64,000 nucleotides of DNA from an uncultured delta proteobacterium (GTDB lineage Bacteria > Desulfobacterota > Syntrophorhabdia > Syntrophorhabdales > WCHB1-27): NCBI GenBank assembly GCA_963810935.1, contig CAWEPK010000009.1, forward strand, positions 256,001-320,000, in the 5' to 3' direction. Within the stretch, counting starts at the first letter, position 1. Each line of letters opens with the position of its first letter. Positions 20,390 to 26,932 of this stretch are shown one piece after another. The translations under genes were made by a program, and so were the position numbers. The notes beneath the pieces are model-generated. The model ran no database searches. It saw only the letters and a list, made by a program, of their open reading frames with translations, and was not told the DNA's origin.

Positions 20390-21743
20390 ATGGAAAAAAT
20401 GGGGATATTGGTAGTGGAGGATGAGCAGACCCAAAGGGTCTTGCTCGAGGGGCTTCTCAAGAAGGAAGGATACGCCGCTACAGGCGCAGAAGATGGAGAG
20501 CGGGCGCTTCAGCTTGCCAGGGACCGCACTTTCGAGATAGTGCTCCTCGATTACAAGCTGCCGGGCATGGACGGATTGACCGTGCTCAAAAAGCTTAAGG
20601 AGATGAACCCGGAGATCCAGGTCATCATGATCACCGCTTTCGGCAGCATCGAGAACGCGGTCACCGCTCTCAAGGAGGGCGCGTTCGAGTACCTGACCAA
20701 GCCCATCGACCTCGACGACCTCCTTTTCAAGATCAAGAAGGTCGAGGAGCGCCTGCACCTGATCCACGAGAACCTCGTGCTCAAAGAGGCCCTCAAGGAC
20801 AAAATGAAGTCGGAGAACATCGTCTACGCCAGCGAGAAGATGCACGAGATCGTCAGCCTCATCGTGAGGGTGGCCAAGACGGACTCGACCTGCATGGTCC
20901 AGGGCGAAAGCGGCGTAGGTAAGGAGATAGTTGCCAATCTCGTCCACGAGCTCGAGCGAGAGGAAGGGGCAGCCGCTGGTCAAAGTGAACTGCTCCGCTA
21001 TCCCGGAAACGCTCCTGGAAAGCGAGCTGTTCGGCTATGAAAGGGGCGCCTTCACAGGGGCCTATCAGAGAAAGATCGGCAAGTTCGAAGTCGCCAACAA
21101 GGGGACCGTCTTTCTGGACGAGATCGGCGACGTGCCGCTTCCCTTGCAGCCGAAGCTGCTCCGCGTGCTCCAGGAGCGGGAGATAGAAAGGCTGGGGGGA
21201 CTCCACCCGATCAAGGTCGATGTCCGGATCATAACGGCCACCAACAAGAACCTCGAAGAAGAGGTGAAACAGGGGCGCTTCAGGGAAGACCTGTTCTACC
21301 GGCTGAACATCGTCCAGATAGAAATCCCGCCTTTGAGGGAGAGGAAGGAAGACATCCCGCTTCTTCTCGATTTCTTCCTGAAGAAATTCAACGAAAGGCA
21401 CAAGAAGCAGTTGAAGGGATTTTCCAGGGAGGCGCGGGACACGCTTATCAAGCACGATTACCCCGGCAACGTGCGGGAGCTCGAGAATGTCGTCGAGCGG
21501 TCCGTAGTCCTTTCAAGGGGAGAATACGTCACCCGTGAGGACCTTTCCATGCTCGGTTCGGCGGACGCCGTCCCGACGGACGGCAGCATGAAGCAGGTCG
21601 TCGAGTCGATGGAGAAGAGGATGATAATGGAGGCCCTCGTCACGGCCAACTGGGTGCAAACGAGGGCAGCCGAGGCCATCGGGATCAGCGAGAGGATGTT
21701 GCGGTACAAAATGAAAAAGCTGGGGATAGCGAGAGAGGAATAA
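20390..21743 (+). CDS. sigma54-dependent response regulator (ZraR/AtoC-like); +1 frameshift at ~20954
   Basis: REC domain and GESGVGKE in one frame; [29 protein letters not shown] and Fis HTH in the next; the two join at CTC-G-AGC. Confidence 0.92.
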
Positions 21744-21893: not shown

Positions 21894-22466
21894 ATGTCCG
21901 CGAACGAGTTCATCGAGCATTACGGCTATCTCGCTCTGTTCGTTGGCGTTTTTTTCGAGGGAGAGACAGTCCTCATCGCTGCGTCGTTTGCCGCGCACCA
22001 GGGCTACCTGGACGTCTCCTGGGTCATCCTGATCGCCTTTTTCGGCGCCGTCGCAGGTGATGAATTCTATTTCTTCCTGGGCCGGTTCAAGGGCAGGACT
22101 TTCCTTAGAAAACATCCTTCATGGACGGAAAGGATCATGAAGGTCCAGCACCTGCTTGAGCACTACCACCGGCTTATCATCCTCGGTTTCCGCTTCCTTT
22201 ACGGTCTTCGGAGCGTCACCCCGTTCGCCCTCGGCGTGATGAGCGATGTCAAAATCTCCCAGTTCATCGTCCTGAATCTCATAGGAGCATTTGTCTGGTC
22301 GGTTGTGATGGGACTGTTCGGTTTTCTCTTCGGCGTCCTCCTCGACGCACTGATCTTCAACGTGAGAAAAGTAGAACACCACGTCATGCTGGCTATCATC
22401 ATCCTGTGGGGCCTGGGGTGGGTGTGGTATTTCTTCCTGAAGAGACGGAGACTAAGGAAGGCATAA
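21894..22466 (+). CDS. dedA: DedA family membrane protein
   Basis: EGETVLI..GD..F.LGR, RFLYGLR..P; promoter TTGACA-17-TATATT at 21854-21882. Confidence 0.9.
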   Translation: MSANEFIEHYGYLALFVGVFFEGETVLIAASFAAHQGYLDVSWVILIAFFGAVAGDEFYFFLGRFKGRTFLRKHPSWTERIMKVQHLLEHYHRLIILGFRFLYGLRSVTPFALGVMSDVKISQFIVLNLIGAFVWSVVMGLFGFLFGVLLDALIFNVRKVEHHVMLAIIILWGLGWVWYFFLKRRRLRKA

Positions 22467-22480
22467 TAGCACCGCCTGCG

Positions 22481-22819
22481 CTAGTCGTGTTTTTTGATAG
22501 AAAAGATGGGCTCCTGCACCGATTCGCTCCTGCAGATCGGACACCTGCCGGGCTTCTTCAGACGGACCCTCTTACGGAAGACAAACCCGCACCTTTCGCA
22601 CTGCGCGGGGACCACGATCAGCTTCGATGTGCTCTTGTCTATCGTTTTACGGATGTGCTCCAGGTGTTCGTACACATCCCTTTCCGGGATCCGCAGCTCA
22701 ACCGATATCTGCCTGGCGCCCAGCGGCGCCTCCGCCAGGAGGGCGGCGATCCTTTTCCGGATCGTCTGATACCTCTCCTCCGGCACGACGGCTTCTTTGG
22801 GTAGTTTGCGAACGGCCAT
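22481..22819 (-). CDS. HTH plus Zn-ribbon predicted transcriptional regulator (COG3357-like)
   Basis: TIRKRIAALL..VYEHLEHI..PAQCERCGFVF..PGRCPICRSE. Confidence 0.8.
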   Translation of the reverse strand: MAVRKLPKEAVVPEERYQTIRKRIAALLAEAPLGARQISVELRIPERDVYEHLEHIRKTIDKSTSKLIVVPAQCERCGFVFRKRVRLKKPGRCPICRSESVQEPIFSIKKHD

Positions 22820-22966
22820 CCGGGCTCCAGTGTACCATAATTATAGGCGTGCCTGCGCAGGTGCGCCATCGGAAAAACACCGGCTGCTTCTCCTTGCCGC
22901 AGGCATCAGGCGACCTTATATTTAACATTACGAAGAGACTAAAGCGACCGAGATAAGGGGGGTCCC

Positions 22967-23533
22967 ATGGCAGAGATAAAATGGATCGGGGACGTGGAAT
23001 CCGCACTTTCCCTGGCTAAGTCCGAAAAGAGGCCGCTGTTGCTCGATTTCTTCAACCCGAATTGAATAGGCTGCAAACAAATGGGTGCAGTTACGTACCC
23101 TGACGGACGCGTTGCGGAATTCATAAACAACCGGACGATACCCGTTCAGCTCCTCTACGACGCACAGCCTTATGCCTCTATGTACAACGTTAAGTGGACG
23201 CCTACGATCCTCATGCTGGACGAAACCGGAAAGGAGCACCACAGGATAGTCGGCTTCCTGCCCCCCGAGGAGTTCATACCGAACCTGCTCCTCGGCACGG
23301 CGAAGGTGAGCTTCGACAGGGATGAGCTGGAGCAGGCGGACGCAGACCTCGAGAAGGTCATCCACAGCTATCCGCAGAGTGCAGCGGCGCCTGAGGCGAT
23401 CTATCTGCACGGCGTAATCCGGTTCAAGGAAACGCATGAGCCGGAGCCGCTGAAGGAGGCCTTCGAGAAACTCAAACGCGAGCACCCGGAAAGCGAGTGG
23501 GCAAAAAGAGCGACGCCTTACGGGCTTCTGTAG
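22967..23533 (+). CDS. Thioredoxin-fold/TPR protein, probable selenoprotein (UGA at 23063-23065 in UxxC)
   Basis: AAGGGGGG RBS, then MAEIKW..ALSLAKSEKRPLLLDFFNPN-UGA-IGCKQM in frame with the 23081-23533 ORF; WTPT cis-Pro loop; TPR-like C-terminus; 188 aa. Confidence 0.88.
23083..23100 (+). promoter_or_regulatory. Candidate bacterial SECIS hairpin
   Basis: GGGUGC-AGUUAC-GUACCC stem-loop; loop starts 23 nt after the UGA, with GU at loop positions 2-3. Confidence 0.55.
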
Positions 23534-23721
23534 ATAAAGACCGATGGGTGAATAAGCGATTACCGGCCGCACCCTGCTGCCTCTATCGAGGCCGCAAGAA
23601 TACTCTCGCAGGACGCGGCTGGTAAGTTTTTTTTACCGGCCTTCGCAATATCCTTGCAAATCGATTCGAATTGGGTAAATATTACTGCCATGAGATTGTT
23701 GCCTAAACGGATGGATGCAGA

Positions 23722-24357
23722 ATGAGAAGGGCGCCTTTCAACGCCTGTGACTATCTTTGCGACCGGTGCGCAGAGACGGCCTATTGCGACATCTTTGCCC
23801 TTTTGCGCAGCAAGGCCCTTTCCGGACAGATGGAGGGCAAACCCGGCGGACTGCCCGGCGCCTCTATCGAGGACGTGAAGGAGTCGCTCGATGAGACGAT
23901 GGAAGTCCTGAAGGCGATAGCCGTGGCGCTCGCGATAGACCCGGACGACAGTGCCGGCTTCGGCGGCCTGGAAAAAAGCTCGGTTGACGATGACGGGTTA
24001 TACCGCCTTGCCCACGCCTTCACCACGAAGACGCATGCCTTTCTGAAAAACGTGGAGCCTTTCGTAAGCTCCGGGCAAAAGACGGCCTTCGACGATCTTG
24101 TCTGGTACCACAGGATGGTCTCGGTCAAGACGCGCAGGGCGGTCGCGTCCGATTTCAGCGGCATGTCCGAAGATGCCGTAGATTCGGCCGGCGTCGCCAT
24201 GCGATCGCTCAACAGATGCATAGAGGCGTTCGAGGATATCCGCCAGTCCTGCTTTCTGGCGTCCCACGATTCGCGTCAGCTTTCAAACACGGCAGTCGAG
24301 ATAAGAAAGCAGCTCAGGAAGCGTTTCCAAAAAGACTCGCTGCAGGAACCCGCTTAA
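23722..24357 (+). CDS. Hypothetical protein with N-terminal Cys cluster
   Basis: NACDYLCDRCAETAYC followed by a helical domain. Confidence 0.75.
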   Translation: MRRAPFNACDYLCDRCAETAYCDIFALLRSKALSGQMEGKPGGLPGASIEDVKESLDETMEVLKAIAVALAIDPDDSAGFGGLEKSSVDDDGLYRLAHAFTTKTHAFLKNVEPFVSSGQKTAFDDLVWYHRMVSVKTRRAVASDFSGMSEDAVDSAGVAMRSLNRCIEAFEDIRQSCFLASHDSRQLSNTAVEIRKQLRKRFQKDSLQEPA

Positions 24358-25016: not shown

Positions 25017-25445
25017 TCAAATATCGAGTATGACAAACGCCTTCCACCCCCGGCCGGTTTTTTCAAGGCTGAGGCGGTGGAGCGTGACTGCTTTCACGTC
25101 TGCGCGCTGCGCGTGGCGGCCAGGGTCGAGCTTTTCCCCTGCAGCGCTCGCGCGAAGGCGGTACGTATTCCCCGTTTCCGTTACGGTTGCCTTCCCGATT
25201 TTCAATAGAAGCTGCTCCGCGTCCTTATAGTATATCAGTTCTTGAAGGAGGTCGAGAAGTAGCATGTCGGCGGTGCGCTCTTCCAGGTCTATCTCCCTTT
25301 GCTCCCTCGGTGCAATGGAGGCCAGGTCTTCGACCATCACGTTCATCGTCGCGTCGCACGCTGCCACGAGCGTCTCCTCCAGGGTCGTGTCTTCCGCCTC
25401 GAATGCGATATCGGCCGTCGCAACGTCTTCCAGGTAACGGTACAG
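25017..25445 (-). CDS. Archease (RtcB activator), CTG start
   Basis: AAGGAG-AGCCC-CTG then YRYLEDVATADIAFEA; C-terminal DVKAVTLH..ILDI. Confidence 0.9.
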   Translation of the reverse strand: MYRYLEDVATADIAFEAEDTTLEETLVAACDATMNVMVEDLASIAPREQREIDLEERTADMLLLDLLQELIYYKDAEQLLLKIGKATVTETGNTYRLRASAAGEKLDPGRHAQRADVKAVTLHRLSLEKTGRGWKAFVILDI

Positions 25446-25474
25446 GGGCTCTCCTTCTTTCGGTGCGCCTTCGC

Positions 25475-26932
25475 CTACCCTTTCACATTGCCCACGGGGA
25501 TAAACCGCGCGACTCTTCGGGCGATCCCCGCAAGCTCGGCTGCCTCGGCCACTTCATCGATATTCTTGTAGGCCGCCCCCGCCTCCTCCGCGAGGCCCGA
25601 CCAGGAAGCGGTGCGGACATAGATGCCCCGCTTTTCCATCTCCCGCTGGAGGTCTTTTCCCCGCCACTGCTTCCGCGCGGCCGTGCGGCTCATAGTGCGT
25701 CCGCTGCCGTGAGGCGCGCTGAAGAACGTCTCCCTGCCCCCTTCCGTGCCGACGAGGAGGTAAGAGCCGGTTTCCATGCTCCCTCCTATTATGACCGGCT
25801 GGCCGATCTTCTTGTACCGGTCCGGTATCTCCGCCATGCCCGGCCCGAAGGCCCTGGTGGCCCCCTTCCTGTGTACGAGGAGCTGCCTATCCTTGCCGTT
25901 TACCATGTAGCGCTCCAGCTTCGCCGTATTGTGCGCTATGTCGTAAATCATCCGGACGCCCAGCTTTTCCGCCGGTTTGCCGAACATACGGGAAAAAACC
26001 TCCCTTATGCGATGGAGGATCATCTGGCGGTTCGCGAACGACATATTGAGGGCGCATTTCATAGCAGAGAAATAGTTGCGCCCTTCCGGCGAATCGAAGG
26101 GGGCGCAGGCAAGCTCCCGGTCGGGGACGCGTATGGCGTACTTGCTCTCCATGACGTTCAGGAAGCTGCGGAGGTAATCGGTCGCCACCTGATGGCCGAA
26201 CCCCCTGCTGCCACAATGGAACATGATAACAACCCGGCCGGGCGCGAGGCCGAACGCTTCCGCGAGTTCCGGCGCGAATATGTGCTTCTCGTGTACGACC
26301 TGCACCTCAAGATAATGGTTGCCGGAGCCTAGGGTCCCTATCTGGTTGAAGCCCCGGTCGATGGCCCTCTCGCTGACTGTAGAGGCATCCGCTCCGGGGG
26401 TGCAGCCCCGGTCTTCCGTCAGCTCCAGGTCTTCGTTCCAGCCGTAGCCGTTGCGGACGCACCATCCGGCCCCCTGCTCGACAACGTCACGGAATTCCTG
26501 TCTCGTCAGCTTCAGGAAGCCCGAGCTTCCGACGCCCGCGGGCACTGCGGCGAAGAGCGCGTCTACAAGCTCTTTGAGCCGTGGCTTGACCTCTTCATAG
26601 TCCAGGTCGGTCTTGATCAGCCTCATGCCGCAATTGATATCGAAGCCGATACCGCCCGGCGAGATGACGCCGCCTTGCCCGATGTCCATCGCAGCTACGC
26701 CCCCGATGGGGAACCCGTATCCGAAATGGCCGTCCGGCATGCATAGGGCATAATCCGTCACGCCCGGCAGCATGGCGACGTTGGTCACCTGGTCGTAAAC
26801 CGCGTCGTCCATCTCTTTGATCAGCTTCTCGGTGCCGTAGACGCGGGCAGGCACACGCATCCCCGGCTTGTACGACACCGGCAGCTCCCATACAGTCTCC
26901 GACAGGCGCTGCAAGCGTTGCGGCATCGGCAA
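25475..26932 (-). CDS. rtcB: RNA ligase RtcB (archaeal/eukaryotic-like, archease-linked)
   Basis: MPDGHFGYGFPIGG, GFDINCG, GTLGSGNHYLE, HCGSRG, HNTAK, HRKGATR, HGSGR, EEAGAAYK; TTG start 8 nt after GGAGG (ATG 26926 is an alternative). Confidence 0.97.
   Translation of the reverse strand: MPMPQRLQRLSETVWELPVSYKPGMRVPARVYGTEKLIKEMDDAVYDQVTNVAMLPGVTDYALCMPDGHFGYGFPIGGVAAMDIGQGGVISPGGIGFDINCGMRLIKTDLDYEEVKPRLKELVDALFAAVPAGVGSSGFLKLTRQEFRDVVEQGAGWCVRNGYGWNEDLELTEDRGCTPGADASTVSERAIDRGFNQIGTLGSGNHYLEVQVVHEKHIFAPELAEAFGLAPGRVVIMFHCGSRGFGHQVATDYLRSFLNVMESKYAIRVPDRELACAPFDSPEGRNYFSAMKCALNMSFANRQMILHRIREVFSRMFGKPAEKLGVRMIYDIAHNTAKLERYMVNGKDRQLLVHRKGATRAFGPGMAEIPDRYKKIGQPVIIGGSMETGSYLLVGTEGGRETFFSAPHGSGRTMSRTAARKQWRGKDLQREMEKRGIYVRTASWSGLAEEAGAAYKNIDEVAEAAELAGIARRVARFIPVGNVKG

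Follow-up and report, generated by a model that had tools for sequence, protein, structure and literature searches.

The locus at 22967-23533 of the window (the whole 64,000-nucleotide stretch analysed here) raises the question of whether a TGA codon within a thioredoxin-like reading frame is a stop signal or is decoded as selenocysteine (Sec) and, if it is decoded, what kind of protein results. From an ATG at 22967, 32 sense codons lead to an in-frame TGA (23063-23065), after which the same frame runs through I-G-C, a WTPT motif and a helical tail to a TAG at 23531-33. With the TGA read as Sec, the product would be 188 aa long. This is the layout of the original prediction, which had placed the TGA at the first Cys of a CxxC motif, and it was confirmed on the sequence. 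The features concerned are:

22955..22962, plus strand: purine-rich ribosome-binding site, read from the sequence
22967..23533, plus strand: predicted selenoprotein gene, 188 aa, of the 'thiol:disulfide interchange protein' family of Zhang et al. 2006
23063..23074, plus strand: U-I-G-C active-site motif, with the TGA at 23063-23065 as predicted Sec33 and Cys36 at 23072

Orthologs were found in 51 of the 96 genomes of the order (E<1e-20; counted from the match table), and every match that spanned the motif contained exactly one TGA. Codon 33 was TGA in 30/30 of the best 30 genome loci, this genome included. It was also TGA in 80/80 metagenome loci, chosen as the best 80 of at least 543 confirmed stretches, so that this set leans towards close relatives. 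Neither TAA nor TAG occurred at codon 33 among these 110 genome and metagenome loci. Codons 22-32 showed coding-type conservation (0.86, 0.93 and 0.62 at positions 1, 2 and 3, respectively), and other stops upstream of the TGA were seen in 0/30 genome loci and 1/79 metagenome loci.

A search for homologs with Cys or TGA at codon 33, proposed with the original prediction, found both. Among 377 aligned stored proteins, 25 fell short of residue 170 and were dropped; 252 of the 352 that reached the C-terminus begin after residue 33, without the active site, and 100 cover that residue, the query among them. The Sec column of the 99 other full-length homologs held Cys in 77, Trp in 10, Ser in 9 and another residue in 3. 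The prevalence of Cys, together with the invariant TGA, argues for Sec at this position. A rough tree, built from TGA and Cys sequences (25 of each) and weak at its deep nodes, nested two Cys forms in a TGA clade (support 0.93-0.99), probably as a result of reversion.

The Trp forms bear on a different reading, in which the TGA is either translated as Trp under code 4 or stands for a TGC or TGG misread in sequencing; this assembly does contain many indel errors. Trp in homologs had been named in advance as evidence against Sec and was seemingly found, but it proved to be an artefact of code 4 in the two cases that could be traced: P0028 is 100% identical, and P0041 99% identical, each over 121 residues, to a TGA-bearing locus read under that code. 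The remaining Trp forms had no matching locus, which leaves 2 of 10 traced to TGA. Moreover, the only tRNA with a UCA anticodon in this genome is tRNA-Sec, and independent genomes carry the same TGA. We give the Trp or error reading next to no weight.

Elsewhere this genome uses TGA as a regular stop codon, at the end of 396 of the 1045 ORFs of at least 400 aa. It could conceivably be a true stop here too, leaving either a pseudogene or a 32-aa peptide followed by a separate 150-aa protein that lacks the active site. The 150-aa form is indeed what a plain ORF listing gives (23081-23533, from Met39 alone), and an identical product has already been deposited in a public collection, as expected from the original claim that gene callers would truncate the protein. 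The assembled selB gene is also broken. Against this reading, TGA stands alone at codon 33 in 110/110 loci, the frame and Cys36 are conserved past it, and the selB breaks are assembly errors (see below). A Shine-Dalgarno-like word lies near codon 1 in 29/30 genome loci and before Met39 in 2/30, and the Met site after Cys36 is a Leu in L007. A true stop is thus extremely improbable. One 90%-identity cluster in the databases contains 185-aa Cys members alongside 149-aa truncated members.

A hairpin follows the UGA closely:

23083..23100, plus strand: predicted bacterial SECIS hairpin GGGUGC-AGUUAC-GUACCC, with a 6-bp stem and an AGUUAC loop

The hairpin starts 17 nt downstream of the UGA and its loop 23 nt after it. 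Its dimensions (6-nt loop, 6-bp stem, G second in the loop, 23 nt from the UGA, -8.4 kcal/mol) agree with the bSECIS model as given in section 5 of PMC13188914, which specifies a 3-9 nt loop, a 4-16 bp stem, a G at loop position 1 or 2, a distance of 16-37 nt from the UGA and an energy of -7.5 kcal/mol or lower. Over the 30 genome loci, helix +21-26/+33-38 was paired in 180/180 cells with its +23/+36 pair G-C in 17 loci and A-U in 13, a level reached by 0/500 shuffles, and RNAalifold recovered the identical helix. The +23/+36 pair is the only one of the six stem pairs to covary, four being invariant, and the loci are kin rather than independent. Among 88 distinct sequences drawn from 111 loci, an A at +23 (in an Asp codon) was paired with a U at +36 (in the Tyr codon TAT) in 27/27 cases, the synonymous stem sites +24 and +33 were near-fixed (87/88 and 86/88, respectively), and the hairpin was fully paired in 83/88. 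Its folding energy was no better than that of shuffled sequences (z -0.5 to -0.8), and an Rfam e-value search of 22300-24200 gave no match. At the level of sequence, the support for this hairpin as a SECIS element is comparative, not energetic; the covariation and the fit to the bSECIS model nonetheless favour the role originally assigned to it.

The second stem suggested at first, GGCUGCA/UGCAGUU, does exist, but it uses bases of the hairpin, and the two structures are therefore mutually exclusive. It showed no covariation (112/500 shuffles reach its level) and was fully paired in 26/88 distinct sequences. It dominates the 50-nt fold of this gene (0.96), not the 60- or 80-nt folds, and vanishes when the first 11 nt are omitted from the fold. 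These first 11 nt after the UGA would be covered by the ribosome.

Sec decoding calls for a dedicated machinery, another check put forward with the original prediction. This genome (G000) has selA, tRNA-Sec and two selD genes. The assembled selB (G000:C5:224279-226178, L022) is split by three single-base indels, two of which lie in an identical GAGCT-C-GA context. In short-read contigs from four runs of one study (depth about 4-7), which may include the source sample, both extra bases were absent in 4/4 runs and the missing base was added in 3/3 covering runs; the selB frameshifts are therefore errors of the assembly. selB was intact in 3/3 genomes of the same genus. When a second assembly (G087) was compared with this one, 17 of its 68 long ORFs lost frame, among them genes that we take to be rpoB and atpG, although some of the breaks may be G087's own. 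Across the order, selA was found in 91/96 genomes; the TGA ortholog is present in each of the other 5, three of which are at least 95% complete. Every one of these five holds selB (3) or tRNA-Sec (4), in line with incomplete binning; the missing selA counts against Sec decoding there until explained.

Some observations on these genes stand apart. The tRNA-Sec gene occurs in three near-identical copies (G000:C4:30323, C6:4921 and C11:126664) with about 220 nt of upstream sequence in common, beyond which the C6 and C11 copies diverge, by eye, into different integrase-like gene ends. This suggests that selC is an integration site and that the bin mixes strain variants. The selD genes lie at G000:C9:199342-200256 and C8:20204-21109, one of them with an in-frame TGA. 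Weak matches elsewhere in the order were to other thioredoxin-like ORFs with one in-frame TGA each (G008:C172, G045:C14, G044:C69, G043:C181, G020:C342 and G018:C2), possibly further selenoproteins of the thioredoxin fold.

On this comparative evidence, what looks like a stop is almost certainly the selenocysteine codon of a thioredoxin-like redox protein. Taken jointly, Sec decoding and membership of the family described by Zhang et al. leave us with very little doubt. What the protein does is then best considered from its two predicted domains:

22967..23299, plus strand: thioredoxin-like domain (about residues 1-111), PF13098, DsbD-gamma/DsbH-like, with a Thr-Pro loop at residues 78-79
23300..23530, plus strand: helical TPR-like domain at the C-terminus, similar to CpoB/YbgF/BamD, with W..RA.PY.LL as its conserved end

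The thioredoxin fold and TPR-like tail, both part of the original prediction, held up in profile searches: PF13098 matched with 54.1 bits (cut-off 27), and profile positions 114-184 matched the CpoB TPR structure 6g5s with an E of 9e-8. YfiO and TPR_6 fell slightly below their Pfam cut-offs for the tail. An AF2 model, built with Cys at residue 33 from an alignment of 23 full-length sequences, reached a pLDDT of 97 and consists of a thioredoxin-like and a helical domain, the modelled tail having helices at 100-117, 121-134, 141-156 and 160-172 plus two short ones. Modelled from its sequence alone (pLDDT 61), the tail had YbgF and BamD as its top Foldseek rows, with no match at E < 0.001, and the ESM Atlas returned only unnamed Trx/TPR clusters. 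Near the C-terminus, PYx[L/F][L/I/V] was present in 109/109 complete tails drawn from 114 loci, some of which were fetched twice.

Of the two active-site residues of CxxC in a thioredoxin fold, the leading one acts as the nucleophile and the other resolves the intermediate, and SelB with GTP and Sec-tRNA binds the SECIS loop. We propose that SelB-GTP-Sec-tRNA at the loop of this hairpin would insert Sec33, whose selenolate would attack a disulfide of the substrate; Cys36 would resolve the mixed intermediate, and the enzyme would be re-reduced, probably via a TrxB-like reductase. Two TrxB-like sequences are present in the genome, both below cut-off. Disulfide reductase activity, as predicted from thioredoxin chemistry, is likely. 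With about even confidence, we also infer that the TPR-like tail and the invariant C-terminal helix form a docking module for one specific partner or client. Overall, the best explanation is very probably a cytoplasmic Sec thiol-disulfide oxidoreductase of the 'thiol:disulfide interchange protein' family.

The published name of that family suggests instead an exported protein of the DsbD/DsbC type. The closest solved folds (DsbD-gamma, DsbH and a protein of cytochrome c biogenesis) are in keeping with the name, and the tail resembles the repeats of periplasmic CpoB and BamD. DsbD gamma, DsbH and related PF13098 proteins (1vrs, 2ju5, 3f9u, 2kuc, 2lst) have folds like that of residues 1-118 (Z 14.6-17.4), the VIA Z scores being 17.4 to 3f9u, 15.7 to DsbH and 14.9 to DsbD-gamma. 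Unlike DsbD gamma and DsbH, however, the protein has an extra helical tail and Sec, and it lacks a membrane or export signal: by eye, neither it nor the aligned full-length homologs contain an N-terminal hydrophobic stretch, signal peptide or membrane segment, which agrees with the cytoplasmic location first proposed. The DsbD model PRK00293 matched over the gamma domain only, at 43.4 bits against a cut-off of 330, and inspection of the recurrent neighbours by eye turned up neither dsbD nor a gene for cytochrome c maturation. We consider an exported Dsb-type protein very unlikely.

A further reading accepts the same Sec decoding and differs from the cytoplasmic oxidoreductase in the role of the tail. 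In a CnoX-like chaperedoxin, the TPR tail would hold unfolded proteins or dock on a foldase, the UxxC motif would repair oxidised cysteines, and the gene would be under heat-shock control. Like CnoX/YbbN (3qou, 3qdn), the protein has an N-terminal thioredoxin domain, C-terminal TPR-type helices and a conserved last helix, and Foldseek ranked YbbN/CnoX 3qdn second and 3qou 14th. The invariant C-terminal helix recalls the GroEL tag of CnoX, which binds GroEL through its conserved last helix (10.1101/2022.05.03.490446, as far as seen in part). The architectures nevertheless differ: CnoX has about 285 aa and two five-helix TPR subdomains, whereas this protein has 188 aa and one short helical domain with a single CpoB-like repeat unit, closer to CpoB/YbgF. 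The CnoX motif is SxxC or CxxC, as opposed to Sec on a DsbD-gamma-like thioredoxin here. The CnoX matches had an rmsd of 10.8-11.6, and VIA aligned the thioredoxin part alone. When the apical domain of this genome's GroEL and the Cys homolog P0045 were submitted to complex prediction, neither of them with an alignment, the score was 0.00 and the controls did not fold; the result weighs neither for nor against.

The upstream region holds two features:

22481..22819, minus strand: divergent PF0610-like HTH and Zn-ribbon gene (PF21476 and PF23470 over cut-off)
22894..22922, plus strand: promoter-like site TTGCCG-17 nt-TATATT

The promoter-like site was present as first described, but by itself it is close to what chance would give (1 site vs. 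0.5 expected). A similar site lies upstream of 17/30 genome loci vs. 2.3% of shuffles, with a pattern set after viewing the sequences and loci that are kin rather than independent. Its -10 box with the preceding T (T-TAT[A/C]TT) is of a class common to the promoter-like sites before both groES genes, both dnaK genes, htpG and clpB, which we take to be these genes from their motifs and N-termini; groEL was identified by TIGR02348. Chaperone genes account for 6 of the 30 sites of this class with a downstream ORF (689 sites with an ORF overall), in a class defined after five of the chaperone sites were known, clpB not being used. TATATT, on the other hand, occurs more often in the scan than any other -10 hexamer (60/1337), hsp20-like and clpP sites have other -10 boxes, no site was found before lon, hslV, hrcA or grpE, and chaperone genes are absent among the recurrent neighbours. 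A chaperedoxin of the CnoX kind is accordingly rather unlikely, if worth keeping in mind. In a variant, of similarly low probability in our view, the family would be an additional chaperedoxin that anaerobes built independently, a Sec thioredoxin using its CpoB-like tail and PYxLL helix to dock on a folding machine or client and expressed from the promoter class of groES, dnaK, htpG and clpB. If the chaperedoxin reading were true, a selenoprotein would be at work in bacterial protein quality control.

Within this genome, the sites TTG[A/C]..T-TAT[A/C]TT lie upstream of groES (C17, C11), dnaK (C8, C15), htpG (C8) and clpB (C7), the C17 groES site being followed by a CIRCE-like inverted repeat; this is possibly a lineage-specific heat-shock promoter. 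The genome has four RpoH-like sigma genes, all below the model cut-off. A sigma-54 promoter at the selenoprotein gene was rejected by eye, as the GG-GC spacing is wrong compared with the sigma-54 consensus. A sigma-32 promoter ('CC' before the -10) was likewise rejected: of the 20 sites that a scan of the genome found, not one precedes a chaperone operon, and there was no match to the delta-proteobacterial sigma-32 sites in the part of the PMC545781 table covered. A literature search for a Geobacter RpoH motif yielded nothing further.

Of the 29 genome loci with upstream DNA long enough to show it, 13, from two families, have the PF0610-like gene, always divergent, which suggests that it and the selenoprotein gene use one control region. 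Regulation of the latter by the former, mooted in the original prediction, is a possibility for which the evidence is synteny. A profile comparison of the PF0610-like protein and a literature search on PF0610 gave nothing further. Neighbour clustering over 114 loci revealed no recurrent partner save this gene and, further upstream in close kin, an NtrC-type regulator, and the conserved neighbourhood offers no clue to a substrate. This sigma-54 regulator (window 20390-21743) is two ORFs here and one 450-aa ORF in G087, probably owing to another assembly indel. Downstream, a 211-aa ORF with a Cys-rich start (23722-24357, plus strand) is found in close relatives only and had no Pfam or NCBIfam match. 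At 25017-26932 (minus strand), rtcB precedes archease, the usual RNA ligase pair.

Returning to the cytoplasmic Sec oxidoreductase, we compared it with known selenoproteins. The NCBIfam thioredoxin-like selenoproteins TsoB (NF045694), VPGUxxT (NF041382/3) and Trx7/PDZ (NF041199) also combine a thioredoxin-like domain with Sec, but have motifs and architectures unlike this protein, and their models scored 44.2, 23.6, 16.4 and 13.3 bits vs. cut-offs of 805, 275, 350 and 300. In the comparison with curated models, which the original prediction had recommended for judging novelty, no NCBIfam model exceeded its cut-off for this protein. The novelty implied at the outset did not survive the literature, however. 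Zhang et al. 2006 (PMC1794560) described a predicted selenoprotein family in Syntrophus aciditrophicus, Geobacter metallireducens and G. uraniireducens, and supplement file 4 of that paper prints three sequences, named 'thiol:disulfide interchange protein'. The sequences having been in print since 2006, the protein is a new member of a known family, not a new family. Table 1 of a 2026 catalogue (PMC13188914) lists the family as PF13098, UxxC, WP_011366075.1, predicted only, with the credit going to Kryukov and Gladyshev 2004. As the name, the PF13098 domain and the UxxC motif all agree, WP_011366075.1 appears to be one of these proteins. Neither source, in the portions covered, mentions the TPR tail or a function (TPR or tetratricopeptide, 0 matches in PMC13188914). 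Literature searches for a description or function of a Trx+TPR selenoprotein gave nothing further; subscription papers, mostly outside their coverage, may describe the tail or function.

The discovery value of the locus is small, as lists of selenoproteins have carried the family since 2004-2006. The annotation value is modest: most database copies lack the active site, there is no NCBIfam model, and the periplasm-suggesting name is unsupported by sequence. The lineage also gains a clean example of a SECIS, compact and covarying, and the natural Cys forms offer an easy assay of the predicted function. What is added here is the order-wide set of orthologs, the mostly truncated state of the database copies, the CpoB/YbgF-like TPR tail and the invariant C-terminal PYxLL. 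The family is also far commoner than the three genomes first reported, being present in 51/96 genomes of the order and in at least 543 metagenome stretches. With the three sequences printed in the supplement, the protein has in common DFFNP[G/N]-U-IGCK, the WTPT loop, APEA.Y, the W..RA.PY.LL end and a length of about 186-190 aa. The active site reads NPN-TGA-IGC here and NPN/NPG-U-IGC, at the same position, in the published three; 100 of 186 positions are identical, without gaps, to the G. uraniireducens protein (counted by eye, and possibly off by a few). The sole difference from the published members is the lineage of the host.
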